NCBI GenBank assembly: GCA_046482545.1
Contig: JAWOEX010000010.1
Location: 173,886-237,885 of the forward strand
Length of the DNA stretch: 64,000 nt
DNA from: Candidatus Thorarchaeota archaeon
GTDB lineage: Archaea; Asgardarchaeota; Thorarchaeia; Thorarchaeales; Thorarchaeaceae
Direction of reading: 5' to 3'
Notes under the pieces: model-generated
What the model was told of the DNA's origin: nothing
Database searches by the model: none
What the model saw: only the letters and a program-made list of their open reading frames with translations
Shown: piece by piece, positions 131 through 62,859 of the stretch
Position numbering within the stretch: the first letter of the stretch is position 1
Layout: each line of letters starts with the position of its first letter
Position numbers and translations under genes: made by a program

Positions 131-271
131 ATGAAGTTAGTAACTCTCCACGTACCCGAGACATACATAGCTGGTCTAGAGAAGTTGGTGGATAGTCAGC
201 TTTATCCCAATAGGTCGGAAGCAATTCGAATCGCTATCCGAGATCTCCTCAAGCGCGAGCTTTGGGGTTAG
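131..271 (+). CDS. Ribbon-helix-helix (CopG/CdrS-like) transcription regulator, 46 aa; not in ORF track
   Basis: Manual translation MKLVTLHVPETYIAGLEKLVDSQLYPNRSEAIRIAIRDLLKRELWG*; the YPNRSEAIR motif is typical of archaeal CdrS-type RHH proteins. Confidence 0.88.
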   Translation: MKLVTLHVPETYIAGLEKLVDSQLYPNRSEAIRIAIRDLLKRELWG

Positions 272-375
272 ACAACTCGCCTCTGGCCGTTCCTAGCAGC
301 CAAGATGAAACGCCAATAGATAGTGTAGTTCACATCTGTCCACATCAAAGAGCAACTCGTGCTTGAGACTATGAA

Positions 376-411
376 GTCCTGGGCACAGACCCAGGATTAC
401 TACTTTTCTTT
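376..411 (+). terminator. Hairpin plus T-tract after the RHH gene
   Basis: gtcctggg-cacaga-cccaggat followed by tacttttcttt. Confidence 0.45.
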
Positions 412-429
412 GTGTGGAATAGTGACCAA

Positions 430-1332
430 AGGTACAAGATTTCTGGGAAGATTTCCTGTTAGATTCCATATCAAGTCTAATCAGTTAGCAAGAATGGAGT
501 AATTGCCCCATTTCTTGTTTTCGAATAGTTATCTTTGCATAATCTTGGCTAATCTACCAGTCAATTCTAGTCGACAGTCCACATCTGGCCCGATAGTGAA
601 TCCTTGAGGTTACATGGCATATACTGCTGGCTTTGTTGAAGAGGTGTCCTCTTTCTTGACCACCTAGTCAAACATTTTCGCTATGATGTCCATTTTCACA
701 GATTTATTCTAATGCAATCGCCTTGTGAAGGTGGCAACTGGTGAATTCGTATACAAGAATATCTGAAGCGTTCTCATAGTTTCCCGCTGCAATTCCTGCA
801 ATTTGTATGGCCTTGGCAAGCATTGACTAAACGGATATTTCATTGTAATCCGTCAGGTCCCCTGATCCTATGTTACCTGCTCTAGGAGAGCCAATAGTCC
901 GTTTTTCGGTCAGCTGATTCCCTCCAAAATAGCACTATGTACACCCGTACATAGTACACCAATCCAAAATAATCCACTCTGTGCTCTCTAAATAATGAAC
1001 GAAAATAGCAATTAGCCAGTCTTGAAAAGCCACCGCTCTTCCATGAGAATACAGGGAATTGAATCCACAACATCGACAGTATTGCTCAGCGTACGCGTTT
1101 CATTATGAATAACGGACGAAACCTAAGGTTTCTTATCCAAAGAGACACTTTCCGGCTTCTTTGTTGATGACAGAAGCAGGAAGCCAGAAGAGATACTCTC
1201 TTGATAAACATGTACAAAGCCTCTGGTAACTCAAGGAGCAAGGGCACCCTTGAGGGCAGCGACCCTAGCACGGGAAGGGTGGAACATAGAAATTCTCCAA
1301 TTTGCTTTCACTCAAGTATAATGAATAGGTCA
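430..1332 (+). mobile_element. Degenerate non-autonomous copy (A) of the TnpB element family
   Basis: 436-461 aagatttctgggaagatttcctgtta matches the reverse complement of the left end at ~62791-62816; ~1170-1330 aligns with the right-end/omegaRNA segment 8390-8552 (gaccctagcacgggaagggtggaacataga...ctcaagtataatgaataggt); the interior is a stop-riddled minus-strand ORF remnant. Confidence 0.75.
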
Positions 1333-1355
1333 GAAGAAATGTTATTACAAGATAG

Positions 1356-2390
1356 TTGTTTGTTGAACGTGCGAAGCTTCAACAACTAGGAGCGTGTAGC
1401 TACATAGGTTCCGATATACCCAGTAAGTCTGATAAAATAGCTAAGCGGCTGGGAAGACGAAGTCAACCGGAATCTTTGGTGAGTGGTTGCCCCTGTTACA
1501 AAGAGTTTGGTGATGAGAGAGTTTGTTTAAACAACGATGATGTAGTTCAAATCAATCCCATCTCAGTTGCCACCTCATTTTTCCCCAGTATTGATTCATT
1601 CGAAAACTTGCAAGACCTCAAGAGCGACAAAGATAACGTTTGCTACTTGCTGGTATACTTGGATGAGGACAAAGACAAAGCATATTGTGTCAGCCAAGGA
1701 AAGAAACTCGTAATCAATGGAAATGATGTTCGTGCAGATGATCTTCGAGATGCACTTAGATTCGTTAATCTAGGCAGGAAATCCACAGATGGGGAAATAT
1801 GTTCAACCTGTATGTACAAGTATCTCATCACGCTTGGAGATGTATTTGAGGATGTACTATCCGAAGATGAACGAACAGAAATCATTGCAGACTATATCGA
1901 GGATATAGCCAATAGAATGGCACAAGACATGACTGGTGGAGATTTGGAGGGGCAAGAAACTGCGGATCAGGAGGAGTTCATCCAGATGCGAATTACGCAA
2001 CTGATGGAACAGAGGGCAGACTGGGAAGAGTTGATTCGTAAGAAAAGATCTGAGGGAGCAGATGAAAAGCAAATTCGCCTCTTGGATAATTACAGACGGC
2101 TGAACAGGCTGGAAGCGACGTTCCTTTCTCAAGTGCATACCATGATTGGAACTGAAATCACTACCCTCGCACTGAATGCCCTTCGCATGATGATAGCAGT
2201 GGCAAAAGAGACAACTGAAACATGTAATAGAATACGCAGTCTGACACACACTCTCACGGACAGCCGCAAGATGCCTGCTGATTTCGATCATCTACTGGAA
2301 CCACATGCTGAGAGGAGAAGAAAAATCGAACACAGATTCGACAGGGTCGAACGGGTGCTGAGTGAGATAGAAATCCAGCAACATCGTTGA
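1356..2390 (+). CDS. Hypothetical protein, Cys-rich N-terminal domain plus helical C-terminus; paralog of 2476-3444; start uncertain
   Basis: Shares GCPCYKxFGDExxCxNxD, YCVSQG and EICSxCxYK motifs with the next ORF. Confidence 0.8.
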   Translation: MFVERAKLQQLGACSYIGSDIPSKSDKIAKRLGRRSQPESLVSGCPCYKEFGDERVCLNNDDVVQINPISVATSFFPSIDSFENLQDLKSDKDNVCYLLVYLDEDKDKAYCVSQGKKLVINGNDVRADDLRDALRFVNLGRKSTDGEICSTCMYKYLITLGDVFEDVLSEDERTEIIADYIEDIANRMAQDMTGGDLEGQETADQEEFIQMRITQLMEQRADWEELIRKKRSEGADEKQIRLLDNYRRLNRLEATFLSQVHTMIGTEITTLALNALRMMIAVAKETTETCNRIRSLTHTLTDSRKMPADFDHLLEPHAERRRKIEHRFDRVERVLSEIEIQQHR

Positions 2391-2475
2391 GGTTTGTCCA
2401 TCAGGAAACAGAATATATTATACGGATGGATAGTGTACAATTAGATGAATCTTAGATTATTAGGGGCAGTATAGG

Positions 2476-3444
2476 GTGGATTCCAAGCTAATCGTCGGAA
2501 AAAACAAGAAAGAGATTCAGGTTGTAAGAGGATGTCCGTGCTACAAGGTGTTCGGCGATGAGAATCTCTGCGTCAACGACGACGAAATTCTAGAAGTTGA
2601 GGTAATTGAAGTCGATCCTTCACTTTTCTCCTTGCATGAAACGAAAGAAGACATGGAAGAAGAAATCGTCCACGAAGACAACATATGCTACTGCTCAGTC
2701 TACATGAATCCGGAGGATAACCGAGTTTACTGTGTATCCCAAGGCTGGCCACTACGGATACACGGAAGGTATGTACCTGCTGATGAGATGAGAGACGCTT
2801 TTCGATTTCTCTCCACAAAAGACCTTTCAGCCCCGGCAGAAATCTGCTCAGAATGTATCTACAAGTTTCTGTTGACACTGAGTGATACCTATTCAACCGA
2901 TATGACGAAGCAAGAACAGACTGATGAAATCAAGGGATATGTAGACAAGTTCTCGCTTATGATAGCTGTCAAGCTCAGCCAAATGGAAGGTATGCAAACC
3001 ATCGGCACAGAAGATGATATCGATAAAGGCGTGGATTACCTCGCATTTTTACGGGGGTATCTTGTACAGCTCCTCGAACAGCAGCAATTCTGGAGCGAAT
3101 TGCGAACCTCTTTGAAGGATGAAGGGACCGAAGAATGGTTGCTGGATTTGGTTGAGAAACGAGAAAAACTGGCACGGCTTGAGTATCAGTTCTACTCGCA
3201 GACTTTACAGCTTCATCATATCGATGATTTCAATCTACTGGTTCGAAACTTAGAATTCATTCTCAAGACTGCTGGAGGTATCCTTAGCCTGAATCAGGAA
3301 ATCCATTCGAAAATCAGATCCGAAGAGTTTCTTGAGAAGGCAGAAGGTGACAAACGACTTGACAAACTCGTAGCTTACGGGGAAAAATGCAGGGCGATTG
3401 AGCACAACTTTGCCAATATACTTCAGATATTGAACAAGCTGTGA
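2476..3444 (+). CDS. Hypothetical protein, Cys-rich domain plus helical bundle; paralog of 1356-2390
   Basis: 322-aa ORF with the same Cys motifs. Confidence 0.85.
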   Translation: MDSKLIVGKNKKEIQVVRGCPCYKVFGDENLCVNDDEILEVEVIEVDPSLFSLHETKEDMEEEIVHEDNICYCSVYMNPEDNRVYCVSQGWPLRIHGRYVPADEMRDAFRFLSTKDLSAPAEICSECIYKFLLTLSDTYSTDMTKQEQTDEIKGYVDKFSLMIAVKLSQMEGMQTIGTEDDIDKGVDYLAFLRGYLVQLLEQQQFWSELRTSLKDEGTEEWLLDLVEKREKLARLEYQFYSQTLQLHHIDDFNLLVRNLEFILKTAGGILSLNQEIHSKIRSEEFLEKAEGDKRLDKLVAYGEKCRAIEHNFANILQILNKL

Positions 3445-3519
3445 CAATCTGTATCTGAAACAGAGAGCAATACAGAGATGCTCAGCGGAGATTTCTTGCC
3501 ATTAGCCTTTTGCTAGAAT

Positions 3520-4470
3520 CTACCCGATAGGGCCAAATGTCTCCTTCAGCCATTGAATGTACTCTTTCACTCCTTGTTCTAGTGGGATCTCTGGTTTCCA
3601 TCCGTATGATTTGAGTAGGCTGATATCGATGTCCGTTATGACTACATCTCCAGACCATCCTCTTTTTGAGCCGGTATACTCAATCGAGGCATCAGGGACG
3701 CCCGCTGCTTCACAAACCAGTTCGGCAATCCTAGCCACCTTCAATCGTTCACCAGATCCTACGTTGATAGGCTGATAACCCTCTTGCATCTTTTCTGCAA
3801 GAAGCATAGTGGCAGCAACAGTGTCACTGACATACATGTAGGACTTCTCTTGTTGGCCATCTCCCAAGACCTCAAGGCAAGTAGGGTCCCGTTTCAGTTT
3901 CATATAGAAATCATACATCACACCATGAGTTGAACGTGGACCGATTATGTTGGCTAGCCGCATGCTCACGGAGTTGATTCCATACAGTTCAGCATAGGAA
4001 GATAGGTACATTTCAACAGCGCCTTTCGCAGCACCATAGTTGCTAATCGGGCGGAAAGGTGTGTTTTCTGGTGTCGGGAATACGTCGATCTGTCCATATA
4101 CTGTACCTCCTGAAGATGCAAAGATGAATCGGTTGATGTCTCGCTCGCGCATGGCCTCAAGGATGTTGATAGTTCCAACCACATTGATTCTAAAATCGAG
4201 TAAGGGTTGGTCCACACTTAACCGAACATCTGGTTGAGCTGCTAAATGGAAGACTGTATCGACTCCTTCTAGGGCGGAATCAATGTCCTCCTCAATCGTT
4301 ATGGATCCTTCAATAAAACGGAAGTGCTCTTTCTCCTCATGATGTACTATATTCCCGCGTTCTCCTCCAGAAAGGTCATCGAGCACTATCACCTCGTGTT
4401 CATCGATTAGACTGTCTACCAAGTGGCTACCAATGAACCCTGCACCGCCAGTAACTAGTACACGCTTCAA
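3520..4470 (-). CDS. NAD-dependent epimerase/dehydratase (UDP-glucose 4-epimerase-like)
   Basis: VLVTGGAGFIGSH, FHLAA, YGAAK (YxxxK) extended-SDR motifs. Confidence 0.93.
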   Translation of the reverse strand: MKRVLVTGGAGFIGSHLVDSLIDEHEVIVLDDLSGGERGNIVHHEEKEHFRFIEGSITIEEDIDSALEGVDTVFHLAAQPDVRLSVDQPLLDFRINVVGTINILEAMRERDINRFIFASSGGTVYGQIDVFPTPENTPFRPISNYGAAKGAVEMYLSSYAELYGINSVSMRLANIIGPRSTHGVMYDFYMKLKRDPTCLEVLGDGQQEKSYMYVSDTVAATMLLAEKMQEGYQPINVGSGERLKVARIAELVCEAAGVPDASIEYTGSKRGWSGDVVITDIDISLLKSYGWKPEIPLEQGVKEYIQWLKETFGPIG

Positions 4471-4518
4471 GTTTCATCACAACGATTCTGGTGGTCTCTA
4501 TCCAAAGCATAAAGGTTC

Positions 4519-5124
4519 CTACACGCTGAACCGCGAGTCTGAAAGGACAGCCTCCAAGAATGATAGAGCCGTGGGGTCCTTTTCCGTCCTATTCCATTCC
4601 TTTATGAACTCCTTGAAAATCTCCATCTCTTCGGTAACGCGTTGGCCGAGTCTTTGTAGATGTGAGGCTTTCACGTAGTCTCCTTCCCCCAGTCCCGAGC
4701 ATATATGCTTCATCGCATTCAATCCCCAAGCCAGTTCGCCATTCTTGCGACCGAAAACGAACGGGAATGATTTACATACACCGGGCCGATAGGGATAAAT
4801 CATGCACTTGTTCTCTCTTAGGAAGATACAGCCAGTATCTTCGATTTTTTTCAGTGCAACATATGCTCGACCCTTTTCAGTTTCAACTGAGGGAATTTTT
4901 CTAAGGCCCCGTGGTACACTTTCATTTTCACCAAGGATGTAAAAATCAATTGCCCTCAGGAGCTCCGTAGCGGTTAAATCCAGCAATTTCGCTATTCTTA
5001 CAATATCTGTACCTGTCAATGTCACAAGCATGTTTTCCTGAGTACAACAGGCGGCACATCCCGTACATTCGAAACGTACATCGACAGTTGTAGAGTCATC
5101 GGTTTCTTGCTTGCTGGTTGACAT
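4519..5124 (-). CDS. YkgJ/UPF0153 family cysteine-cluster protein
   Basis: FECTGCAACC ... CIFL..NKCMIYPYRPGVCKSFPF. Confidence 0.9.
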   Translation of the reverse strand: MSTSKQETDDSTTVDVRFECTGCAACCTQENMLVTLTGTDIVRIAKLLDLTATELLRAIDFYILGENESVPRGLRKIPSVETEKGRAYVALKKIEDTGCIFLRENKCMIYPYRPGVCKSFPFVFGRKNGELAWGLNAMKHICSGLGEGDYVKASHLQRLGQRVTEEMEIFKEFIKEWNRTEKDPTALSFLEAVLSDSRFSV

Positions 5125-5138
5125 CTCTAAGCTATAAC

Positions 5139-6305
5139 TCACATCAAGGTCTGTAAATATTTGTTTACCTTTGTAAGCCCTTCCTCAATAACGTCCATGC
5201 TAGTAGCAAAGCTGAAGCGTAGGTTGCTGTCGTAATCTGTTCCAAATACAGTCCCCGGAACCGAGGTGACGCCAGCTTTGAGAAGCAGCATCTCTGCGAG
5301 TGTTGCACTGCTTATTCCATAATGTGAGAAATCAGGAAACACATAGAAAGCCCCTGCAGGATTCACGCAATCGACGCCCTCCATGGAATAGAAGATATCG
5401 ATAATTCGGTCGCGTCTTTTCTGGTATTCCGCCCGCATCTGATCGATACCACTCTGATCGCCTTCCAATGCTTCAACTCCAGCATATTGTACGAACGATG
5501 CTGCGCATGAGGTAGTGTTCTGCTGAATTCGAACCATATTATCTATGGTCACAGCATTTCCAATAGCGTATCCGAGACGCCAACCGGTCATCGCGTAAGC
5601 CTTCGAGAAACCGTTGATTATGACAGTATGCTGAAGAGCGGGGTCAATTTCAAGCATCGAGGGTTGCTCGAAGCCATCAAAGACCAATTCTTCATAGATT
5701 TCGTCGCTAAATACGACAATATCATGGTCTATTGCCAAATCATGGATAAAACGCAGGTCGTCCTTATTTATGACGCCTCCAGTCGGATTGTTCGGGCTGT
5801 TGATAACCAGGCCTCTAACATCCTTGTTCAGAGCTGTTTTGAGAGATTCTCTATCAAGGCGGTAATCAGAATCTGTTGACACATCAATAGGAATTCCACC
5901 GGCTGTTCTCGTCAATACACGATAGGTTGGCCAAGCAGGAGCCAAAATCAGGACATCATCACCGCGGTCGATTGTAGATAATATGGCCCCGAAAAGAGCC
6001 ATTTTCGCGCCTGGAGTAACAACCACTTGTTGCTCAGGATCAAAATCCATGCCACGGTCCGCGTACACATCTGCTATTGCCTTCCGAAGAGGGGGATGAC
6101 CCCTCGCTGAAAGATAGCGTGTATGTCCCGCGTCGAGTGCGTCTTTCGCAGCCTTGACAATATTGGCAGGCGTATCGAAATCAGGTTGGCCCACCTCGAA
6201 ATGGTAGACTTTCTTGCCCTCAGCCTCCAACTTGTTTGCCAAGTCAAACATTTTCAGCGTTCCAGAAGCAGGAATACGCTCCATATGGTGCGATGGCCAT
6301 GCCAT
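5139..6305 (-). CDS. Class I/II PLP-dependent aminotransferase (aspartate aminotransferase-like)
   Basis: GQPDF, NSPNNPTG, SDEIY, GFSKAYAMTGWRLGY. Confidence 0.95.
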   Translation of the reverse strand: MAWPSHHMERIPASGTLKMFDLANKLEAEGKKVYHFEVGQPDFDTPANIVKAAKDALDAGHTRYLSARGHPPLRKAIADVYADRGMDFDPEQQVVVTPGAKMALFGAILSTIDRGDDVLILAPAWPTYRVLTRTAGGIPIDVSTDSDYRLDRESLKTALNKDVRGLVINSPNNPTGGVINKDDLRFIHDLAIDHDIVVFSDEIYEELVFDGFEQPSMLEIDPALQHTVIINGFSKAYAMTGWRLGYAIGNAVTIDNMVRIQQNTTSCAASFVQYAGVEALEGDQSGIDQMRAEYQKRRDRIIDIFYSMEGVDCVNPAGAFYVFPDFSHYGISSATLAEMLLLKAGVTSVPGTVFGTDYDSNLRFSFATSMDVIEEGLTKVNKYLQTLM

Positions 6306-6372
6306 TATTGGTCACCTTGCATTTAGTGCACTTAGGTAGTAGGAGGCGGTCATTGGTTCTTTATTACTATTT

Positions 6373-7218
6373 TCATGAGAACTTCGAAAAAACCTGCATC
6401 AACTGCTCTTTCTGATAGTCTGTACCAAGAATCTGTATTCGGTCGAGCATGGCTTCGCCCAGACCTTCACGATAGGCACGGAGAATATGGTCAATAGCCA
6501 AAGGATCGATGCCATATAATCCAGCACAGAAAGCGTCAAGAGCCAGTATATCAAGGCCAAGGGCTACACCGCCCAAATGGCGAGTCTCTCTATTTTCTCT
6601 AGGTCCGATAATTATTTCGGCTAAATCCATGACGGTGAGATCTGATTGATATGTACCAAGCAGGTCCATGAGTACATCGGTTATCTGGTCGTGGTATATC
6701 GATTTGTCTTCTTCAGGCAGCAAGCCGAAAAGGTTTTTGATGGCACCACTGTATGTGGAGATTTTGGGCTCAACCTTGGGAGTAGCAACATTGATGAAAA
6801 AGACGTTGCCATGCAGCAATTCGGGCATTTCTTTCTCTTCGAAATAGTTTCCGGGCATATCAACTGGAACCAATTCAGCCTCAGATAGATTGACAAGATT
6901 CACCCGATTGGACTCTAGTTCGTCATACCCGCATTTCGAGAATGCAGCCCAGGTGGTTCTTAGAGGGTTGTCACTCTCGACTATATAGACAGGTGCAACC
7001 TCTTCAAAAGAGTACACAATTGCCTTAAGTAGCTCCAATGAAGTGTTTCCGGGTAAATCAGGATCATAAATTGAGGGTTTGATTAAAATTCGGTCCAGAG
7101 GGCTCTGAAACGGAAGGGGTTCAGTCATCTTTGAAAGGGCCTTGTTGAGTGTCTCCCGTGGGTTTCTACGAACGGCAATGGCCACTTGCGACCCTGAAAT
7201 CATACCTGCCTTTAGCAC
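6373..7218 (-). CDS. DUF362 domain protein
   Basis: ILIKP, INVAxxK, SGAIKNLFG and DxLALD motifs. Confidence 0.8.
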   Translation of the reverse strand: MLKAGMISGSQVAIAVRRNPRETLNKALSKMTEPLPFQSPLDRILIKPSIYDPDLPGNTSLELLKAIVYSFEEVAPVYIVESDNPLRTTWAAFSKCGYDELESNRVNLVNLSEAELVPVDMPGNYFEEKEMPELLHGNVFFINVATPKVEPKISTYSGAIKNLFGLLPEEDKSIYHDQITDVLMDLLGTYQSDLTVMDLAEIIIGPRENRETRHLGGVALGLDILALDAFCAGLYGIDPLAIDHILRAYREGLGEAMLDRIQILGTDYQKEQLMQVFSKFS

Positions 7219-7260
7219 AGACTAACCCTTTAAGTTGATGTTTTGCAGGTTAGAATCGCC

Positions 7261-7438
7261 ATGACTCTAAGTGGTGACGAACGAACCAGATACTCGAGAA
7301 TGCTGCCACTGAGGCATTTTGATGAGAGCAAGATGGAGTCCATCAAAGAAACAAAGAGTTGCAGTGGCTGGCACTGGCGGTTTGGGATGCAACTTGCGCA
7401 GACTGCTTACTTCGTTCGGATTCGGACATATCAAGATA
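7261..7438 (+). pseudogene. ThiF/MoeB/UbaA (E1-like) 5' fragment, frameshifted and truncated by element B
   Basis: MTLSGDERTRYSRM..., then a frameshift near 7350-7356 to VAVAGTGGLG...FGFGHIKI (RYSR and GxGGLG motifs). Confidence 0.85.
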
Positions 7439-7875
7439 ACCCGTTTCTTACAGTTGAGTGAGTGGATCCAACTGAGGAAACTTCTGTGTTCCACCCTTCC
7501 CCTGCCAGCGTCACCGCCCCCAAGGTACCCGTAGGCCCTCGGGTCAGCAGGGGCTTTGTCCACGTTCACCGGAATAGGATTCCTCCCGCGGTCCTGGCTT
7601 CCTTCTCCTGTCGAACTCCGGTACATCACTCCCGGCGACAGCGAGTTCTTCCACAGTTCTTACCACGGCGTGGTCATGATCACCCACCTCAGCCTTGTCG
7701 CCGTAGCTGAGGAGATCCATCTGGACATGGTGAACAGCCGCGGACTCTCCAGGGTCTGATGGGACCCCTCGTTCGGAGAGTAAGGACTTCTGCTTAGAAG
7801 ACGACGTCTTCCTCACAGCCTTCGGGGCTGGGCGCTTCTCCCGTGGGGGAGTGGCTCACCGCCCTAGTCCTACTA
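7439..7875 (-). ncRNA. Putative TnpB omegaRNA scaffold (stand-alone copy B)
   Basis: Homologous to the region overlapping and downstream of the tnpB 3' end; TTTATTA box (7898-7904, minus strand) lies 23 nt upstream of the conserved agtaggac. Confidence 0.65.
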
Positions 7876-7997
7876 GACCGGACTCCCGTACTAGGCCTAA
7901 TAAACTCCCCTGCTTGAGAGAGAATCGTTACAGGAAATCTTACAGATATTTTACACTTTTCCACTCGGATTTTTTACGATTTTTGTAAAATTTACCC
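7439..7997 (-). mobile_element. Non-autonomous element B (left end plus omegaRNA/right end only)
   Basis: 7439-7870 closely aligns with 54640-55070 (3' end of tnpB and downstream); 7927-7997 matches the left-end hairpin at 62791-62859. Confidence 0.9.
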
Positions 7998-8007
7998 TTT
8001 CAAGACC

Positions 8008-8552
8008 TTTGTAAATCGTACAGAATCCTAAATAAATCAGCACAGTAGAGTGTAAGATTTCATCGAGCCCTTTTCGTGACCAAAAAGGAGTTTAGTAGAC
8101 AGACAACCGTACTGGATATCAGTAGGACCAGGCAAGTGGGCTAGCGCAGAAGCGCGAAGCACGCGGCTGAAAGATGTGAGGAAGTCCTGTGATTCTAAGC
8201 GGAAGTCCTTACTCTCCACAAAGAGAGCTTCATCGAACTCAGGAGGGTCCGCGGCTGTTCACCATGTCCAGATGGACCTTCTCATCTACGCTGACAAGGC
8301 TTATTCGGGTGATTGTGACCACGCCATGGTAAGAACTGTGGGAAACGTCGTTATCGCCGGAGTGACGACCCGGGATGACGACGGGAGGATGAAGCCAAGA
8401 CCGCAGGAGGAATCCCAATCCGATGAACGTGTGCAAAGCCTCTGCTTGCTCAAGGACTGAGAAGTATCTTGGGGCGGCGACCTTAGCAGGGGAAGGATGG
8501 AACACAGGAGTTTCCTCAGTTGGATTCACTCACTCAACTGTAAGAAACATGT
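8008..8552 (+). mobile_element. Non-autonomous element C, head-to-head with B
   Basis: 8011-8061 is the reverse complement of the left-end motif; 8120-8552 is homologous to the reverse complement of 54640-55070 and ends cactcaactgtaagaaacatgt|tatc. Confidence 0.9.
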
Positions 8553-8556
8553 TATC
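8121..8556 (+). ncRNA. Putative TnpB omegaRNA scaffold (stand-alone copy C)
   Basis: Same conserved block as B and E; TTTAGTA box at 8091-8097 lies 23 nt upstream of agtaggac. Confidence 0.6.
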
Positions 8557-8723
8557 CGGAGCTACTTCGAATCGTGACTGGAATTCAAGTGCGTGAAGCG
8601 GTACTGCTCGCTACATCTCGCAAGACCGAGCATATGGAGGTGCTGATGACAGTAGACTTGACTTCGCTAACTGTTGATAGGTTTGAAATTGCAAAGGATG
8701 CCAACTGCAAGATTTGCTCTTGA
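8553..8723 (+). pseudogene. ThiF/MoeB/UbaA 3' fragment
   Basis: YPELLRIVTGIQVREAVLL...FEIAKDANCKICS*: QxxEA helix and terminal CxxC of MoeB/ThiF. Confidence 0.8.
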
Positions 8724-8737
8724 TTAAAGATACAATC

Positions 8738-9769
8738 CTATGCTCCGAAGAAGAGTCTTCTGGCTCTCTTTCTCCGCTCATCTTCGTCTTCTTCACCTTG
8801 GGGCGGTGGTGGTGGTGGAGGTTCGGAGCGATTTTGCTTCTTAGAAGATTCGTTTTGGTCAACCTTGCCTTCTTCGTCATGGACTTCTCTCTCAACTACA
8901 CTTGTTGATTCATCTGATGCTTTCTCTTCAACTGAGGAGTCGTCCAATGGACTCCGGGTCTCTTCCTTTTCGGGGGGACTATCTGATTCCTTTTCGGAGG
9001 CTCCATATGGTGAAGCTACCCTAGGAGTCAATGCATCTTCATAGTCGTCCCAGCTAAAATCATCTTCCGTTTCTTCTTCTGATTCAGGTGCCATAGTATC
9101 TTCTGATGTTTCCATTGAGGAGGGGACTTGATCGGAAGATTCGATTTCAGTTTCGGCTTCCTCAGTGGGTTGCTCATATTCATCCTCCTCGGCAGTTGAT
9201 TTCATAGATTCTGGTTCAGCAAGGTGGAACTCCTTCGTGAAATCCTTGAAGGTTTCAGGCTCTGAAGGTTCTTCATCAGTGGATACGGACTTCTCGCCTT
9301 CTACGGGTTCAGCAACATCTGATTCTGAGACCGAAGCAGATTCTTGTGTTTCGGAATCTTCTGGGAACAAATCCATTTCTGTGTCTAATCCTTTCTCCTC
9401 ACTCACAACACTTGGTGCAACTGATTCTCCAGTTGGCATTTCGAAAGAGGGTTCTTCTAGCGATGCAGAGGGTGTTTCAGTCACGCTTTCATCGGTAGGA
9501 ACCTCGTCGCTGAAACTGGGCTCTTCAACCAACTCACTGGATGATTCTACTGGAAGACCTTCTTCATCATCACGAAAGTTAATACCCAAAGCATAGCTTA
9601 AGCATTCCTCGCAGCGTTTTGCAGCTGCAATGAGACCGTCATTGATGAAATCATCGAGACTTCTGGCTCGGTCAGGGTGGCGTTGAGACCACTTGAGAAA
9701 ACTGTCTACCATACGCAAAGCGTCTCGGACTCCAAGCCAATATGATTCGTCCTTTTTATGTGAAGTCAA
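8738..9769 (-). CDS. Acidic low-complexity protein with structured N-terminus, poly-Pro tract and basic C-terminal helix
   Basis: 343-aa ORF; E/S/D/P-rich middle; PPPPPPP then ERRKRARRLFFGA. Confidence 0.8.
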   Translation of the reverse strand: MTSHKKDESYWLGVRDALRMVDSFLKWSQRHPDRARSLDDFINDGLIAAAKRCEECLSYALGINFRDDEEGLPVESSSELVEEPSFSDEVPTDESVTETPSASLEEPSFEMPTGESVAPSVVSEEKGLDTEMDLFPEDSETQESASVSESDVAEPVEGEKSVSTDEEPSEPETFKDFTKEFHLAEPESMKSTAEEDEYEQPTEEAETEIESSDQVPSSMETSEDTMAPESEEETEDDFSWDDYEDALTPRVASPYGASEKESDSPPEKEETRSPLDDSSVEEKASDESTSVVEREVHDEEGKVDQNESSKKQNRSEPPPPPPPQGEEDEDERRKRARRLFFGA

Positions 9770-9828
9770 CTATTGCACCATCTCCACTTTAGACATGCTT
9801 ATGAAAAAAGCCTTTGTATCACTGCTTG

Positions 9829-10296
9829 CTATTTCTCGTTTCCTGCTTGATTCCGAGCATCAAGAAGACGCCCGACCAGTTCATCAAGGGCGTATGCTAT
9901 TTCATTCCGCGTGAATTCATCCACGCGGGATGACTCGCAGATGATAACCTTAACAGGTGTTTCCTTCCCGATTTCGTCTTTAATTTCGTTTCTATAGACC
10001 TCTTCAATATCTGGATCCTTTTCAGGCATTACAATGAGCGCGGCACTTGCGCCCCTGAATGTAACACCCAGAAGAACATCTAGAGCAGAGTGTTTGGGTG
10101 ACATCAGTAGCATGCGTACATCGGAATCGTCAGTCTCTACCTGTGCGCTACTGATTCTGATTCCGTCCAGAGAGATGACCTGTTCGTTTAAGACCGAAAG
10201 AACATCCATAACTAGGTCGTCATCGGGGCCGACTACTGTTATCTTGAAAGCAAAGCTTCCCTTTTCGTCGACGCTATCAATATCTTCAGATTTCAA
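9829..10296 (-). CDS. Degenerate small-GTPase (Ras/Rab-like) fold protein, ~155 aa
   Basis: FKITVVG...GIRIS...VRMLLMSP...TFRGASAALIV mirrors Rab beta1/G2/G3/YYRGA but lacks GKS and DxxG; TTG10296 has gagga upstream. Confidence 0.6.
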   Translation of the reverse strand: MKSEDIDSVDEKGSFAFKITVVGPDDDLVMDVLSVLNEQVISLDGIRISSAQVETDDSDVRMLLMSPKHSALDVLLGVTFRGASAALIVMPEKDPDIEEVYRNEIKDEIGKETPVKVIICESSRVDEFTRNEIAYALDELVGRLLDARNQAGNEK

Positions 10297-10411
10297 TAAT
10301 CGGCATCCTCTTTCAAAAACTTCACTCACTTGGAAATAAGTCTTCTCAATGCACCTTTTGCATAAGCTAACGTTGATAAAGTCATCTTGTTGGGTTGAAG
10401 AGTGAGATTGA

Positions 10412-10765
10412 ATGAAATTGACTACAAGGCAAGAAGTATTTGAAGCGCTGGAACCCGTCAAGGATCCAGAGCACCCGGTATCAGTAACGGACGAGCGCAT
10501 GGGTATTGTAAAAAAAGAATATATCGAAGTTGAAGACGAGAAAATTCGAGTTGACTTCAAGCCGACTGTACCCTATTGCCCCATGGGCGGACTGATTGGA
10601 GTCCTAATTCGCAACAGGTTGGAAGAAGTCTATCCAGATATGGATATCGAAGTCCGAGTTTTGCCAGGTTCGCATTCCCAAGAATCAGCGGTTAACGAGA
10701 TGGTCAGTAATGACGAAAAATACGAGAATGTGCTAGGCCAGATGAGAAGCAGAGGAATGATTTAA
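10412..10765 (+). CDS. DUF59 / MIP18 (CIA2/FAM96-like) Fe-S assembly protein
   Basis: VKDPEHP, FKPTVPYCPMGGLIG, PGSHSQESAVN. Confidence 0.88.
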   Translation: MKLTTRQEVFEALEPVKDPEHPVSVTDERMGIVKKEYIEVEDEKIRVDFKPTVPYCPMGGLIGVLIRNRLEEVYPDMDIEVRVLPGSHSQESAVNEMVSNDEKYENVLGQMRSRGMI

Positions 10766-10819
10766 TCGTCAGGCTAAAAGAAGACAAAGAATTCACTAGG
10801 TCTTTCAGAAGAACGAGGT

Positions 10820-11194
10820 GTGATCTCTATGGAATTCCCGGAGAAGCTCGTGATAACGGGTTTCATTTTGGTGACTCTGGGAATAGCTATCCTAGGTTTA
10901 CTTGGGGCAAGCGAGGGAAATGGCTTCTTTGTCGTGTTCCCATTCTTCTTCTTTGGAAGTACTGATGACACAGCAATTCTTCCGTTTATTGTCATGCTTG
11001 TCATCAATGTTTTGATTTTTGGATTGCTTCTATGCTGGGGTAACCGTCTTTGGAAGCAAAGTCGGGAAGGGAGCGAATGTGCATTGCTAGTTGAAGGAAA
11101 ATGCAGATTTTGTGGCTCTCCAATCCCAAAAGGTTCGGAATATTGCCCAAGTTGTGGGAAAGCGATTAGATATATGGATGATGAAATCGCTTGA
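10820..11194 (+). CDS. Membrane protein (DUF131-like) with C-terminal zinc ribbon
   Basis: 2-3 hydrophobic segments, GFFVVFPFFFFG, CRFCG...CPSCG. Confidence 0.75.
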   Translation: MISMEFPEKLVITGFILVTLGIAILGLLGASEGNGFFVVFPFFFFGSTDDTAILPFIVMLVINVLIFGLLLCWGNRLWKQSREGSECALLVEGKCRFCGSPIPKGSEYCPSCGKAIRYMDDEIA

Positions 11195-11220
11195 AAAGAG
11201 CGACTAGGAATCGATGAATT

Positions 11221-11685
11221 ATGCCGTACATAAGGGAAGTATCCAAAGATGACCTCGAAGCGATAAAGGAAATCGAGACATCCTGCTTTCCAGTCCCTTG
11301 GAACCCTGAGGTTTTCGATATCCTAGCACGATGGGAGGGGACAATTCCATTGAAAGGTGAGCGAATACTACACATGAAGGTCCTTGAAGACGACGGCAGA
11401 TTATGCGGCTATGTGGTGTGGGAAGAAAATAGCGAAGATTCTGAAGGACACCTCATGAATATCGCGATTGCCAATGATAGCCGGGGGCGGGGATTTGGAA
11501 AGAAGCTTCTGGAACATGTTCTCAAATCCCTGCGAGCTAGCGGTTCTACTGAATGCTGGCTTGAGGTAAGATCAGGAAATGAGAGCGCCAGATCCCTTTA
11601 TGAAAGCATGGGGATGAGGGCAAGTGAACGCATCCCCAATTATTACGACAACGAAGACGCCATAATATACCGAATTGATCTATGA
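11221..11685 (+). CDS. rimI: RimI/Ard1-like N-acetyltransferase
   Basis: HLMNIAI...RGRGFGKKL, LEVRxxNxxAxxLY, YYDNEDA. Confidence 0.88.
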   Translation: MPYIREVSKDDLEAIKEIETSCFPVPWNPEVFDILARWEGTIPLKGERILHMKVLEDDGRLCGYVVWEENSEDSEGHLMNIAIANDSRGRGFGKKLLEHVLKSLRASGSTECWLEVRSGNESARSLYESMGMRASERIPNYYDNEDAIIYRIDL

Positions 11686-14600
11686 CTCTTCGCGAATCCT
11701 GTTTTCTATAATACGTGGGCCTATGACATCATGGAAAAGCTGCAGGTACGCCTTATCCTGCGACACAAGAGCTATCGGAGGGCAGCTTTTGCGGGAACCA
11801 GCTAATAGTATCTCGCAGGAATCAATAGTCGCGAGCAAAGCTGGTGATCGCGTCCGCCAAATCCGCCAGCCTTCCATCTCCTCAAGTTCATGAGGTACAT
11901 CCGCAGATTCTGGTAAGACAAGGATGCGTCTTCCGGGTGCTTTCACCTTGCTCAGCACTTCGGAATCTAATGAAGCGGGATTATCAACCGACACAAGAAC
12001 AGACTCTTTTGCACGCCCAATCATGCCATGCAGGTAACCCTGAATCTCTTCATCACCGGAAACATACCAAGTCTTTTCGTTTGCTGGAACACTGAGCTTC
12101 TGGCCTGCTTCTGTAAGAGTTTCTAATCCATCTATTGCAGAGGATATCACATGGGTCATTCCCTCTATCGTCGTATCAAGGGATTGCCGCAATGAGTTGA
12201 CCTGCTTCTCTCGTTCAGTTTGCCAACGTTTCGACTCTTTCTCTATTGAACTGGTCAGAGCATTGACAGCCTCGTTTCTTGCTCGACGAATATTCGATTT
12301 CTTCTTGTTTGCAGCATTGTTGGCTTCAGTCACGCATTCAGTTATCTCGGTGTTAGTTTCAGCAATGTTAGACCTCACATCTTCCATCACACGATGATTC
12401 TCCTGACTCAGTTTTGTCTTGAGTTCAAGACCCAACGACTCAAATTTTCGTGATGCATACAGATTTGTCTCAATAAGACTCTCTAGCGCCTTATCAAATA
12501 CCACACCCGATTTCTTGCTGGTCTGTTCGGTAGTTTGGTCTAGCAAATCGCGGTATTCTTTTATTGCCCTGTTCTTGGACGCATTCATCTGATTTTTCTC
12601 TTCACCCAGTTTTGTAAGAACAGTATCACATTGGGAATTAGTCTTATTCACCAAGCTGGTAAAGGACTCATCCACAATATTGGAAAGTTTCTGTGGCAGG
12701 TCATCAACCGTATTTCTGCTTTCGTTCAGTTTTGTTGAGGTCGTTGCCTCAAACTCAGTAGCGTGAGATCTCAAACTCTCTTTAGTCTCTTTCAGATGTT
12801 TGGTTCCAAGAGTTTCCAACTGATCTGCATGCTCATCACCCATCTCAGAAAGGCTCTTCCCGATATCGATTGCGGTTTCGCCCAGCTGTTCTTGAGTGGA
12901 TTCAATTTCACCTGTAATATTCTCTTCAAGAGAGTTCAGAGATGATAACACCTTCGTAATTGAGGAGTCAATCTGAAGACCAGCGCCAGCTAATGCCGTT
13001 GATACTTCAGTCCTTCTTTGATTCATGCTGGAAAGAATTTCCTCTCCAAGTGCTCGCCTCTCTTTGAGTCCCTCCCTCTCTGCTTTTGCTAGAGATGATT
13101 CATAAGAGTCCATCCTCTCAGAAGATTTCTTTGTCATATCGGACGTAATTATATCCAGCTGCTTGCTCGCTTCTGTTAGGAGTCGTTGGTCTGAATCAGA
13201 TTGCTGGTTAATGGCGGTTGCAAGTAGATTCTGTACCCGTTTAGAGCTCCGCTCAATCTCACTTGCAGTTGCTTCTGAAAGGTTTGCAACACGTTCTTCC
13301 ACGTTGATGCCTGCCTGTTCAAGGGATTCACCGAACGTTCCAGAGAGAGTCTCTAATTCCTGATTGATTTGCACTATCGGTCCATCTCTCATCTCACGTA
13401 GAGACTGGACTGACTCGTCCATTGCGCTCTCGAGCTGCTGTACTGTCTCCTTGATATTCCGACTCATTTCTTGTTTTTTGCCCTGTGTGAACTCATCGAG
13501 CTTAGTTTGGATATCTGTAGGTAATTCTCGCACGAGATCGAGTCTCTGTCCAATTTCCGAAGAGTATTCTTGCTGCAGTTTCATAGAGGTCTCTTTGAGC
13601 CCAGTCATCTCACGCTTCAACGCAGTGTTGAACTCCGTGTGTGTTGATGACACAAAATCACGCGTCTCAATGACTTGACTGGTAACCAGTCCATTGAACG
13701 TTGTTTCTAGTCCTTCTGTAAGCGTGATGAATTGCTGTGTTATCTCGTCAAGCTGGCTGTGAAACTCATCCTTGATCCCCATCGCATGATTATCTATCCT
13801 AGAGATTTGGTCTTCAATGATAGATTCAATTTCACTCCGCGCCCTGCTTACATGCGAATTCATAGCTTGAACGGTCTCAGCCAGACGCTCATCCAGTTTT
13901 TGGTTTAGAATCTCGTACAGAACCTCGACTTCATCAACGTATTCTTGAGATGAGGTTGCAAATTGAGATGTAACCTCAGATATGTGTGTATGAAGATTGG
14001 ATTCAAAACGTTGAGCAGTAGTATTGATATCAGTCAAGATTGCATCATTCTTGTTAGATGCATTGGTTACAACGGTGCCGAAAGTGGAGGTTATTTCATT
14101 CTGCGTTTTCTCAGTAAGGGTTTTCAGTTCGTTTTCTCTCGTTACAAGGACTTCACCCACTTGGTTAGCAGTTTCTGAGAGGCGTGTATCTATGGCCTCG
14201 GTTGTCTCAGCAACCATTTCTTCCAAATCATCTTCAAGTTTGGCTCTGCCAGAATCCAGATTCTGACGACTTTCTTTCAATCGTTTCCGCAAGAATGATA
14301 GTAGCGTTGTCTTGGTTTCTTCAACGAATTCTGAGAAGTTAGTTTCAACAGCTGATGAAATCTCCTTCAAGTCTGTGTATTCTTCACCAACCACCGAATC
14401 GACTTTGTCCAGATGTCCTGAAATAGTAGTTTGAAGCGCATCAATGTAGTTCTTGTCGGCACTCTCCACTTTGTCAAGCTGTGCACGCATGGATCGGGAT
14501 GCTGAATCCATGTATGTGGCTACTTCCTCTCGCCAAGCTCCAAAAGCCTCATTCATAGCTCTGCTTTCACGTAGAGTAGATTGAATCTTGTCTCTCGCCA

Positions 14601-16452: not shown

Positions 16453-16629
16453 AATGTGGTGCCACCGAAATGAAGCCGACCCAGTGTTATGCCAAGAAGT
16501 GTCATTTACAAGGGGATTGGTTCTCAGGAATCCAACATTAAACTATAAGAGATAAATCTATGGCCCTGAACGAGCCTTTTCAGCATCCAAAACTGGGAAC
16601 TCAATCAGCAGTTTCCCGTCTATCCAGAA

Positions 16630-17096
16630 GACAGCACTCGCTGGAGAGCATGGTTTATCAAATTCGATTATGGAGAAACACTGCTGGGATTGGATGATAC
16701 GCGGCTGAGCATCTATGATGTCGGCCACCTGATCGAGAGCAGGCAGCTCTATGATAGTGACACCAAGAAGTTGCATTCAATGTATGTCATCTTGAACAAG
16801 GTCAAGGACTTCTCTACCCAGGCTGACCTCTCGGAGTTCCCGCTGTTTGCAGAAAAACTCAGAAAGAGCACGGAGACCAAGCAACCCTCAAACAGCTGAC
16901 CGGGTGGTGGGCGTGAATGCCGGAGATCTGTTAAGCTCATGACACAACCTACAATCCCAACGTAGGTTGCTAGATTCCTGACATACGGGTAGGATATCAA
17001 CTTGGTGTATGCAGGATGGTCTATCTCCCACATGAGGTAACAGGAAATCTTACACTTCTATGCGCCGATTTATTTAGGATTCTGTAAGATTTCCAC
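16630..17096. mobile_element. Left-end-only remnant D, flanked by the 10-bp direct repeat CTATCCAGAA
   Basis: Homologous to ~62370-62859; ends in the left-end hairpin; repeat at 16620-16629 and 17097-17106; carries a gene 3' fragment (to 16899). Confidence 0.8.
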
Positions 17097-18365
17097 CTAT
17101 CCAGAAATATGAGTAAGCTTCTCTCGCCATTCCCTGATCTCGCTATTCAGCCGAGCGATGTCATTCTCATTAAGAGTGGCTGTAGGGGGATACGATTTGA
17201 GCTCATTGGCTCGTTTGCCCAGTTTAAAAAGAATCGGAGTGTGAGTGTCGATAATGGTGGTGAGTTGATCTCTCACAGATTCTATTGCCACAGCCATTTC
17301 GTTGGCCTCGACATCAGCATCTACCATATCGAGCAGGTATTGCATCAGCGAATCAAGATCCTCTGGCATATCACTCTTGGGTGCAGCAGTTGTCTCTTCT
17401 TCAGTCTCCTTTTCAGAAATGGCTCTCGGTTTCATCTCTTGTCGTGTAATCGAGGTGCCCAGTTTATCGGTTGTTTCTTCAACCAGAGTAATGGCATTAT
17501 CAACCTTCTCTAGGGTTTTATTGTATTTACGCTCAATATCATCCAGCTGTCTAACAATGATGCCGACAATTTCTTTTGTCTCAACAATAGAGGAATTCAG
17601 ATCATGAAAGCGATCCTCGAGGGCCGATAGGTCCGCTATGTAGGTTTCAATGCTGTCAATCTTCTTCTGAATTACGTCAGATTCACTAGAATCCTTAATC
17701 TTGTTCATTGTATTACCTAGACCGACAACTGAACCAAGAATATCCTCTATCTTCTGCCCGAAATCCTCCCTCCCGTCTTCAAGTCTTGAATCGATGGATT
17801 CCAGCTTGTCTACAACATCCTCATCACTGGTTAGTTCTGAGAGCTGGTCTTGCAGGTCGCCAAACTTCTTGTCGGACACATTCTTTGAAGAATCGATTTC
17901 ATCTTTGACATCTGTTAGCGAAAGCAGAATCTCATCAAGCTTCTTGAAAATGACTTCGGTCTCTTTCGATTCGTTCATTTCAGTAAGAAGCTCGTTCATC
18001 TTGCCAATTGTTTCATTTGTTTCATCAAGTGTGGAAAGAGAGGAAAGATCCCCCCTTATGTCATCCATCTTTGAATTCAGAGAGTCGTGATGTTTTTCGA
18101 AATAGTCATTTATCTCATCCAGCTTCTTATGAAATGTAATTTCTTGCGAATCTACCTTCTTGGAAATATCAGGAATCTGTTCTACTTCACTGACTTGTTT
18201 TTCTATAGCAATGAGCTGCTCACTGAAGGCTTCAATATCCTCCAGCTTGGGCGTGGAGACGGAAAGCTGATTAATCTCATCACGAAGAGCGGCAACTTCG
18301 CTAAGAAGTTTGTCGAGACTCTTTTCCATTTTCTTGACACTTTCTTTGTCCTCTTTGGCGGGCAA
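17097..18365 (-). CDS. Coiled-coil protein with C-terminal helical domain
   Basis: 422-aa ORF with heptad pattern, linker, and C-terminal ...EIREWREKL. Confidence 0.85.
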   Translation of the reverse strand: MPAKEDKESVKKMEKSLDKLLSEVAALRDEINQLSVSTPKLEDIEAFSEQLIAIEKQVSEVEQIPDISKKVDSQEITFHKKLDEINDYFEKHHDSLNSKMDDIRGDLSSLSTLDETNETIGKMNELLTEMNESKETEVIFKKLDEILLSLTDVKDEIDSSKNVSDKKFGDLQDQLSELTSDEDVVDKLESIDSRLEDGREDFGQKIEDILGSVVGLGNTMNKIKDSSESDVIQKKIDSIETYIADLSALEDRFHDLNSSIVETKEIVGIIVRQLDDIERKYNKTLEKVDNAITLVEETTDKLGTSITRQEMKPRAISEKETEEETTAAPKSDMPEDLDSLMQYLLDMVDADVEANEMAVAIESVRDQLTTIIDTHTPILFKLGKRANELKSYPPTATLNENDIARLNSEIREWREKLTHISG

Positions 18366-25024: not shown

Positions 25025-25767
25025 TTCGCAGTCATTTTCGTAAGAATTTTCTCGATTTCATCTTCTTTGAGAAGCGTGAATTGTCGGTCATCCACATTGA
25101 TACGACCAATATCGATTGTTTCAGCCTTTTCTTTGGGGTCGATTTCTGCTTCTTCTCCTTCGGCTCTAAGTAGTCCTTCCAGAGCCAGTTCCTGGACAGC
25201 ATCCAAGTCCATATTTGGCTCGTACTGCTCATTGAAGAAATCGCGAATGACATCGGATTCCTTGCCTATAGCTGTTGCCTTCCAACCCCAGAAAGAACCT
25301 GAGGGGTCAGTTGTGTAAAGCTGTGGTCCATGAAAGTCAACTCCTCCAACTAGCAGAGAAACGCCAAATGGTCGAACGCCACCATACTGGGTATGCATTT
25401 GCTTAGTATCACAAATATTAACGACCAAAGAGTGCACGGATATGGGTTCTTCATAGCTGAGGCGGTTCACTTGAGCTTGAACCCGGGCTTGGTCTATCAG
25501 TTTTCTAGCGTCAGCGTGTAACCCTGCTATTGCTGTTCCAACATGATCATCAATCAGCAATATCTTCTTCAAAGTCTTCAAATCAACGAGGCTATGCGGT
25601 AATCTTTTTTCACCCGCAAGTACTACACCGTCTTCTCCTTTTACACCGACGGCCAAAGGACCATGTCTGACGGCCTCAGTAGCGTACTCAACCTGATAGA
25701 GGCGGCCTTCTGGACTGAAGACTGTTATTGCCCTGTCGTAACCCATACTTCCTTGCTGTGGGAACAT
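25021..25767 (-). CDS. psmA: Proteasome alpha subunit
   Basis: YDRAITVFSPEGRLYQVEYA signature; RPFGVSLL; TDPSG. Confidence 0.97.
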   Translation of the reverse strand: MFPQQGSMGYDRAITVFSPEGRLYQVEYATEAVRHGPLAVGVKGEDGVVLAGEKRLPHSLVDLKTLKKILLIDDHVGTAIAGLHADARKLIDQARVQAQVNRLSYEEPISVHSLVVNICDTKQMHTQYGGVRPFGVSLLVGGVDFHGPQLYTTDPSGSFWGWKATAIGKESDVIRDFFNEQYEPNMDLDAVQELALEGLLRAEGEEAEIDPKEKAETIDIGRINVDDRQFTLLKEDEIEKILTKMTAN

Positions 25768-53903: not shown

Positions 53904-54639
53904 TCAATCTATCATTTTTTCCATGATGCATCCAAGTAGCTCGAAGCCCATACTTCGACATAATTCCAGTTCGATATCATGTTCGGCATGCAACTGAAAA
54001 TATAGACTGGAGCAGTCTTTCTCAGCAGCCCAGTGCACTGCCTGCGATAGAAGCATCTGGCCCGCGCCACTAGGAGGCTCTTCACCAACCGCGAAGTCAT
54101 AGATTGCAGCAGTCTTCTTGTTGTGTTTGGCACGACCTACCCATACGAAACCAACAACACCCTCATCGGGGGACTCAAGCACGAATCGCTGCTGATTGCT
54201 ACCAAGACTGAAGCGCCGCCGCAGAAGCTCTTCGTATCGTTTGACAATATCCGCATCAGAAGCATCTGTACTGAACAACACGAGCCTTCTGAACCTCCGT
54301 AACCCAAGCATCTCTACTCGCTTTTCATCCTGAGGTTCTTGCTCACGAACAATAAGATCAGGTGATTTTTGTAACCTCACATGTTTCGGTTCAATGACAA
54401 GCGGATAGGCACGATACGCGTAGCCCTGAGATTCATACAATTGCTGCGCGGGAAAGTTATGTTCATGTACGAAAAGTCCAATGTTCCGGCCAAGTGTCCT
54501 CGCATATTCTTCTGCTCTTGCGATTAGCTTTCTCCCAAGGCCCTTTCGACGGTACTCCTTGTCAACAATGATGTCGTATATCCACAGAGCGCGTTCGATA
54601 TCCCAGATTTCCCGTTCTGTTCGGAGTGCAATCCAGATA
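53904..54639 (-). pseudogene. 3' part of a tandem GNAT acetyltransferase split by element E
   Basis: IWIA|LRTER...IVDKEYRRKGLGRKL; joins in frame to 62872-63128 (993 nt in total). Confidence 0.9.
54628..54639. repeat. 12-bp direct repeat GCAATCCAGATA (partner at 62860-62871)
   Basis: Exact match at both junctions of element E. Confidence 0.92.
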
Positions 54640-55075
54640 ACCCATTTCTTACAGTTGAGTGAGTGAACCCAACCGAGGAAACTCCTGTGTTCCACCCTTT
54701 CCTTGCCCAGTGTCACCACAATACCAAGGCGCTACCCCCGGCCAAGCAAGGACTTTGACCGCCATCATCAGGACACGGTCCCTCCTGCGGTCTCGGCTTC
54801 TGTCTCCTGCCCTGACCCGGATACATCACATCCGGGGGCAGCGAGGTCTTCCACAGCTTTTGCCACGGCGGGGTTATTATCGCTCTGCCCAGTCTCGTCA
54901 CCGAAACCAGACAGGTCCAATTGGACACAGCGAACAGCCGCGGACTCTCCGGGGTCTGATGAGGACCCCTTTTTGGAGAGTGAGGACTTCTGCTTAGAAG
55001 AACGAGTCTTCCTCACAGCCTTCGGGGCTGAACCGTTCCCCCGTTCGGGGGTGGCCCACCGCCCTAGTCCAGTCT
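54636..55075 (-). ncRNA. Putative omegaRNA of element E, overlapping the tnpB 3' end
   Basis: Position typical of TnpB omegaRNA/reRNA; this is the block retained in B and C. Confidence 0.7.
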
Positions 55076-56447: not shown

Positions 56448-56702
56448 GGGTATCGCCTATTTAAACCTCTAACCTGTTTCGGGGGTAGTTGAGTTCACTC
56501 CTCATGTAGTTTTGACCCGAGGTAATGAACTCATATTCTGATACAGCATAGTCATATTTAAACCTATTAAGAAGAAATATTAATTCAATATTTGATACTC
56601 TTCTAAGGTCATTAGAAACTCCCCAGTTTCATTTCTATACTTAACTATAATAAATAACAACCCGCAAAAAATATAAGAAAATAAACCCCCAGCGTACCAC
56701 CA
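56448..56702. promoter_or_regulatory. AT-rich divergent promoter region between tnpB and the 1410-aa gene
   Basis: Several TTTAAA/TATAA tracts between the head-to-head starts. Confidence 0.55.
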
Positions 56703-60935: not shown

Positions 60936-60937
60936 GG

Positions 60938-62290: not shown

Positions 62291-62360
62291 GTTAAGAGAA
62301 AATCATACAAGCATTGCACATCTGGAACTGTTGATTTTTTGAGGATTTTGTAAAATCCAT
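62291..62360. repeat. Internal degenerate second copy of the left end
   Basis: gttaagagaaaatcataca...gattttttgaggattttgtaaaatcc versus ggtaacaggaaatcttaca...gatttatttaggattttgtaaaattcc. Confidence 0.7.
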
Positions 62361-62790: not shown

Positions 62791-62859
62791 TAACAGGAAA
62801 TCTTACAGAAATCTTACACTTCTATGTGCCGATTTATTTAGGATTTTGTAAAATTCCGA
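62791..62859. repeat. Left-end hairpin with GAAATCTTACA repeats
   Basis: ggaaatcttacagaaatcttaca...ggattttgtaaaattcc: two direct copies and one inverted copy. Confidence 0.85.

Follow-up and report, generated by a model that had tools for sequence, protein, structure and literature searches.

aCas1 is said to have been treated by Makarova in 2020. In the available part of Altae-Tran 2023 (PMC10691335), Asgard aCas1-TnpB transposons (Cas1H-Asgard-1 and Cas1H-Asgard-2) were reported, the transposase role of aCas1 was inferred, and the position of the guide was left open. A rearranged RuvC-II pattern, the TnpB2 type, with Gly or Pro at RuvC-II and an alternative Glu downstream, was described in PMC10530073. 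Our literature search found no paper naming both "TnpB" and "Thorarchaeota". In this study, we analyzed a window of 64,000 nucleotides, the whole stretch of DNA from a Candidatus Thorarchaeota archaeon, whose elements match the published Asgard aCas1-TnpB family. Two short elements in it, B and C, lie in the remains of a ThiF/MoeB-family gene and had been taken, in a sequence-only reading, for a natural dual-guide deletion drive. On balance, we consider B and C to be accidental debris of an active non-autonomous RNA-cassette family from an Asgard aCas1-TnpB transposon, with C inserted first, B nested in it, and a deletion following. Nested insertions plus a deletion in a redundant gene, taking both routes weighed below together, are highly probable. 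The features of the locus are as follows, numbered by position in the window.

7261 to 7436, plus strand: 5′ remnant of the ThiF/MoeB-family gene, about 58 codons, placed by alignment to the intact orthologs (L014 and L015) and by tblastn in two frames.
7431 to 7436, minus strand: 6-bp site at the right end of B, TCTTGA on B's strand, gene-derived; the same hexamer stands here in the intact ortholog L015.
7437 to 7999, minus strand: mini-element B (563 bp), comprising left end, putative promoter, RNA region of about 438 nt from the tnpB 3′ end, and right end.
7460 to 7480, minus strand: candidate internal guide of B, a hypervariable plus GTTCACTC-like segment, the candidate named in PMC10691335.
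7897 to 7910, minus strand: putative BRE/TATA-like promoter of B (GGGGAG-TTTATTAG); the conserved RNA start follows about 23 nt later, at 7874.
8000 to 8005, no strand assigned: single 6-bp site, TCAAGA/TCTTGA, common to the left ends of B and C.
8006 to 8554, plus strand: mini-element C (549 bp), with mismatched sites, TCAAGA on the left and TCCGGA on the right.
8085 to 8098, plus strand: putative BRE/TATA-like promoter of C (AAGGAG-TTTAGTAG), with the RNA start near 8121.
8511 to 8531, plus strand: candidate internal guide of C, one base unlike that of B.
8555 to 8723, plus strand: 3′ remnant of the ThiF gene, 55 codons and a stop, starting with TCCGGA (8555–8560).

B and C are divergent and 72% identical, and their left ends abut, in keeping with the head-to-head arrangement described earlier. 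However, what had been read as about 10 nt between the left ends is actually one common 6-bp site, TCAAGA at 8000–8005. B carries matching sites (TCTTGA at each end), and the site mismatch of C marks the deletion junction. The two guide strings predicted earlier do occur, as strings and candidate guides. The "TATC" in front of them, read as an IS605 tetramer, instead joins the TA at the end of the element to the TC that opens the duplicated TCNNGA site; a weak V-N-H-T-C motif would agree with a guide starting right after TATC.

Based on ortholog comparison, one ThiF-family gene (PF00899) is the source of both flanks. This gene is intact (247 aa) and syntenic, with the same neighbors, in two same-genus Thorarchaeota-like sister genomes (G001 and G002; the genome under study is G000) and in an ENA contig. 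Alignment to the intact orthologs gives collinear flanks, and the earlier claims that both remnants come from a single gene and that its middle is missing are borne out: 400 bp, approximately codons 60–192, are absent between the two junction sites in ortholog coordinates. The link of this deletion to B and C is likewise supported. The remnant lengths given earlier (about 59 and 56 codons) are corrected to about 58 N-terminal and 55 C-terminal codons, and the N-terminal stretch is not open, with a +1 frameshift near 7352–7355 that recurs identically in a Logan unitig and fits neutral decay. The 3′ remnant protein is 65% identical to ortholog residues 193–247, and two intact ThiF paralogs are still present in G000. 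The named homologs nearest the ThiF ortholog are mostly from Ca. Thorarchaeota, while the top match is labeled Lokiarchaeota; these homologs identify the host as Asgard, most likely Thorarchaeota.

The mini-element family to which B and C belong occupies about 100 loci in G000, 28 of them full-length, and many loci in both sister genomes. In a full copy, of about 555 bp, a short left end and a BRE/TATA-like motif are accompanied by about 430 nt with homology to the tnpB 3′ end and its trailer; all copies are mosaic. The BRE/TATA-like motif stands at fixed spacing in all 28 full-length copies and would function as an archaeal promoter, and both cassettes are probably transcribed. A sigma-70 promoter scan was set aside as inapplicable to archaea. 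The consensus fold of the aligned RNA region has 96 pairs, 23 with compensatory changes, and 97.7% of cells are paired; since the structure was derived from the same alignment and the copies are related, this covariation is supportive rather than statistical proof. A search of Rfam returned no family matching the RNA region at E<=1, and the 3′ 250 nt of B and C, folded as single sequences, showed no signal (z about −0.9). The earlier view of B and C as TnpB RNA cassettes that stand alone agrees with the conserved promoter, the covarying structure, and the intact TnpB elsewhere in the genome. A second mini type combines the same left end with the 3′ tail of a giant gene described below (16621–17105 and 62366–62869 in the window; C28:70.5k and C33:20.6k in G000). 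Its copy at 16.6–17.1 kb has TCTGGA at both ends and is without the TnpB-type right end.

The family inserts at V-N-H-TCNNGA, leaving 6 bp on both sides. TC-NN-GA stands at both junctions, its outer four bases near-invariant; the central NN is equal in 21/28 full copies (chance 0.16), all six core bases are equal in 17/28, and six bases are repeated. At one position, G000 has an empty site, 95% identical, with a single TCAGGA, and G002 there has an element between two TCAGGA. An insertion with no target duplication was rejected, as the 6-bp duplication is seen against this empty site. Moreover, T at position −3 upstream of the left core occurs in none of 42 insertions, compared with 29% in the background (P about 5e-7), and the element's own right junction reads TTA, that is, T at −3. 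This rule may reflect an integrase preference, a TnpB motif sparing filled sites, or both. Inheritance of the core follows element lineages (left end p=5e-5, right end p=0.001), suggesting that the element takes its core along and selects matching targets. The two ends are asymmetric and have in common only a short subterminal TGTAAGA motif.

Mismatched cores do not always mark rearrangement, because copy C2, whose sites differ, inserted cleanly; elsewhere, copies with mismatched sites mark an inversion at C23 and, at C22, a composite that has captured DNA. At C23, a segment of about 33 kb lies in the opposite orientation to that in both sister genomes, and each of its breakpoints holds a copy of the element (G000:C23:26119 and 59077–59664). 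The composite element (G000:C22:202865–204534) has matching outer sites, TCGAGA, and about 1 kb of cargo that partly matches another sister-genome locus. A further arrangement at G000:C41:25041–25595 is either a second such pair, opposed and touching, or an inversion inside the element at TCNNGA; compared with the sister genomes, the host has lost no large segment there. Its copy at 25046–25595 is 96.6% identical to C in the left half and 70.7% in the right half.

The same ends also bound parent elements of 7.6–8.3 kb, one of which lies in the window.

54632 to 62869, minus strand: parent-type element (8.2 kb), with ends as in the mini-elements and TCTGGA at both junctions.
54768 to 56447, minus strand: tnpB, 559 aa, with a rearranged RuvC site (PF07282).
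56470 to 56500, minus strand: conserved site immediately 5′ of the tnpB TATA box, an inverted near-copy of the internal guide candidate, found in 21/21 parent loci scored.
56703 to 60935, plus strand: giant aCas1-type gene, 1410 aa, with predicted Cas1-like helical domain, Cas4-like nuclease, and RecA-like domain; candidate transposase.

In TnpB, D242, G345 (replacing E), the alternative E403, and D437 are invariant in 14 homologs. Gly at RuvC-II, a downstream Glu, and Asp at RuvC-I and RuvC-III place this protein in the TnpB2 type, the alternative Glu lying 58 residues away compared with about 45 in PMC10530073. The RuvC site is apparently complete though rearranged. The last ~100 codons of tnpB (54768–55075) are low-complexity and overlap the structured RNA, and the position of the stop varies among homologs. 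The 8.2-kb parent appears to split an acetyltransferase-like gene (53904–54631 and 62870–63128), with 10 or more junction bases repeated. A parent sub-lineage (L029, L050, L052, L061, and L062) is without the TGTAAGAAAC-GGTTA right end, and most of its members adjoin tRNA-like sequence, which suggests different targeting. Some loci (L061 and L062) have a second GGAACAC scaffold-end motif, and L062 has a second TnpB-like gene of 703 aa downstream of the first.

The giant gene adjoins tnpB in 18/22 loci and measures 1400–1960 aa across parents. In its structural models (pLDDT 79.6 and 88.5), the predicted fold of residues 1–230 matches the Cas1 catalytic domain (Z 13.2), residues ~250–560 match Cas4 weakly (Z 7.6), and residues 587–870 match the RecA fold (Z 10.4). 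The top seven VIA matches are Cas1 or casposase (Z 13.2–10.5, rmsd 3.1–3.9, 166–184 aligned), and the top ten Foldseek matches are all Cas1 (best E 7.5e-3). Furthermore, E90, H163, D173, and R176 are invariant, the numbering of E90, H163, and D173 counting from the Met at 56736. Searches of Pfam, NCBIfam, and PDB sequences gave no match to the protein, and Atlas matches stayed below 0.9, so that its Cas1 assignment rests on predicted folds. Searches of G000 (98.9% complete) found no match to PF00239 for serine recombinases or to PF00589 for tyrosine recombinases, the latter being present in 14/14 control genomes. The only IS200 tnpA locus in the genome has no DNA in common with the elements; it could still act in trans. 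We infer that the giant Cas1-fold protein is the transposase and mobilizes the mini-elements in trans; a transposase-less reading of the family was rejected.

The guide may not lie in the flank. An internal guide, preceding GTTCACTC and near-identical in B and C, would target the tnpB promoter region of the element itself and its right end; we regard this as a serious possibility, short of an even chance. The segment is the candidate guide named in the available part of PMC10691335 and comes after the scaffold-closing helix, and its near-copy adjoins the tnpB TATA box in 21/21 parents scored, most often beside a conserved TRACCTG. Scores between internal segment and leader are 8.9 for cognate, 7.0 for non-cognate, and −6.1 for random pairs, with a permutation p of 6e-5 that overstates the case because related elements, which are not independent, have both sequences in common. 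However, the matches are gapped, the segment also forms a hairpin with the right end, the pair could be protein-bound inverted repeats, and the −3 rule fits a flank guide well. The inverted near-copy may reflect RNA-guided autoregulation or inverted repeats. Several loci show matching changes in the internal guide candidate and the TATA-box site (56470–56500 and 54661–54681; L028–L030 and L060–L077). An internal guide, serving autoregulation or end recognition, is compatible with the explanation of the locus preferred here; in that case, neither RNA points into the ThiF gene.

A mechanism for the whole family can be proposed only tentatively. An Asgard Cas1-fold transposase would move promoter-bearing TnpB RNA cassettes of ~430 nt via the 6-bp core and avoid T at −3, so that TnpB tells empty from filled sites; or the internal segment would guide TnpB to its own promoter. 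If true, every copy would be its own homing guide, and B and C could spread as a block, deletion included, by C's guide alone. Whatever TnpB does with these RNAs would hold for every copy.

In the history that we favor for the locus, a C-type copy would first have entered TCAAGA of the intact gene. B would then have entered the same hexamer at the left junction of C in opposite orientation, and the TCTTGA at both of its ends identifies B as a clean insertion. Subsequently, DNA on the right side of C would have been lost up to TCCGGA, either by recombination involving a third copy, at TCCGGA and similarly oriented, or through a mis-paired integrase reaction, and the dead gene would have decayed while two paralogs buffered its loss. 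The order is suggested by the −3 base of B, which is A if the target was the left junction of C and T if it was the intact gene, as read from both orthologs; an ancestral Val codon would alter this base, and the orthologs, the sole source for the deleted bases, are only ~75% identical. Since T at −3 is absent from the 42 insertions, B probably entered C's end. Moreover, all four C-type left ends carry TCAAGA, so the foreign junction would be the right end of C, whose lineage mostly sits at TCC.GA.

The other route, two insertions followed by a left-end-associated deletion as first proposed, is the less likely of the two and retains a minor share of our belief. Here, B would have inserted at TCAAGA and C at TCCGGA 400 bp away, after which the left end of C would have attacked the left junction of B and deleted the intervening DNA. 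This route needs just two insertions, and left ends do join rearrangements, since C41 may be read as the inversion of a left half, and C22 as a left-end capture. However, it puts B at a site with T at −3 (0/42), must join non-matching cores, and requires TCCGGA at a left end whose lineage carries TCAAGA in every other copy. It is kept because one mismatched copy is clean and because mosaicism, common to all copies, leaves a chimera test of C unable to separate the routes. Nothing suggests selection for the pair: touching copies in opposed orientation occur twice among about 100, B and C being one of the two cases, the 5′ remnant is frameshifted, and two intact ThiF paralogs remain.

A functional dual-guide deletion drive, in which TnpB with the B and C RNAs would cut an intact allele twice and repair would copy the cassettes together with the deletion, is very improbable. 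Promoter and structured RNA are kept in both cassettes, a TnpB whose catalytic residues are intact is available in trans, filled sites could be spared through the −3 rule acting as a motif, and IS605 TnpB is known to work by cut-and-copy, a mode also proposed for minis without protein genes (PMC10055086). However, a self/non-self signal appears to be absent at B's site, where the intact gene has ATTA-core and the filled junction has GTTA-core, so that the two agree through −3, the sole strong-rule position. Both orthologs thus read TTA before the core on B's strand, like the right junction of B, and a motif sparing the filled allele would also spare the intact one; this speaks against the proposed double cut. 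The true empty site of B is probably the C-only allele, and because this C-containing allele rather than the intact gene is the empty site, the pair would not be a two-cut device. The −3 base of C falls on a wobble position and differs between the orthologs (A in G001, T in G002), so with B lacking discrimination at most one cut is plausible, by C alone, as would hold for any single copy. Furthermore, the gene remnant is frameshifted, the guide candidate in the available part of PMC10691335 is internal, and the records found include no intact conspecific allele, exact-pattern and protein scans having yielded nothing useful. Elsewhere in G000, the flank guides match only with 2 mismatches, never perfectly.

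Fusion of two repeat copies by assembly is the weakest alternative, extremely unlikely even though contig breaks are frequent in these repeats and no second record spans the B/C join, because collapse is not expected of copies only 72% identical, the flanks are collinear with two sister genomes, and both outer junctions recur in other assemblies. A Logan unitig (SRR31818008) equals 139–7459 of the window at 100%, covering the right junction of B and the frameshift, and GCA_051748335.1 equals 8154–13769 at 99.96%, covering the right junction of C; the two may share one study.

The locus itself is minor, a pseudogene with two nested mobile copies; the family matters more. Its copies provide exact ends, a 6-bp duplication backed by an empty site, a target rule, a natural donor of 555 bp, and two competing guide positions, which makes the questions of aCas1 as transposase and of guide position directly testable. 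If a Cas1-fold integrase does work together with an RNA-guided nuclease, this would be relevant to how CRISPR adaptation arose and to integration tools.

Compared with known systems, the family resembles IS200/IS605 elements with PATE-like minis (Meers 2023, PMC10055086) in its many protein-less minis that keep the right end and the RNA and are presumably served in trans. In contrast, these elements have no Y1 partner of their own, an RNA region of about 430 nt, and a rearranged TnpB RuvC site, and they duplicate 6 bp on insertion; membership in IS200/IS605, which inserts without target duplication, was rejected for the last reason. Similar to IS607 TnpB and IStrons (PMC10690162), a core sequence stands at both junctions, the last scaffold bases match the last target-motif bases, and an upstream base separates empty from filled sites. 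Six bases are repeated rather than the two of IS607, but with the outer four near-invariant the crossover may be central, as in IS607; the genome yielded no serine recombinase, and the parents carry the giant gene. Casposons likewise combine a Cas1-fold candidate integrase with target duplication, but the present elements have asymmetric ends in place of terminal inverted repeats, dispersed sites, and fused Cas4 and RecA-like domains, and the ORF lists of complete parents leave no room for a PolB-sized gene. The casposon duplication is ~14–15 bp, compared with 6 bp here. The closest match is the Asgard aCas1-TnpB group as described in the available part of PMC10691335: an Asgard host, a divergent Cas1 homolog beside tnpB, flanking repeats, and, downstream of tnpB, a hypervariable region followed by GTTCACTCA, all found here too. 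The mini-elements, the 6-bp core, the −3 rule, and the leader match were not found in that part of the source. Beyond its description, the present elements add exact ends, the 6-bp duplication, a target rule, a lineage-inherited core, promoter-bearing minis, and a candidate target for the hypervariable segment, and the end, target, and promoter rules are the useful result for this aCas1-TnpB mini family.
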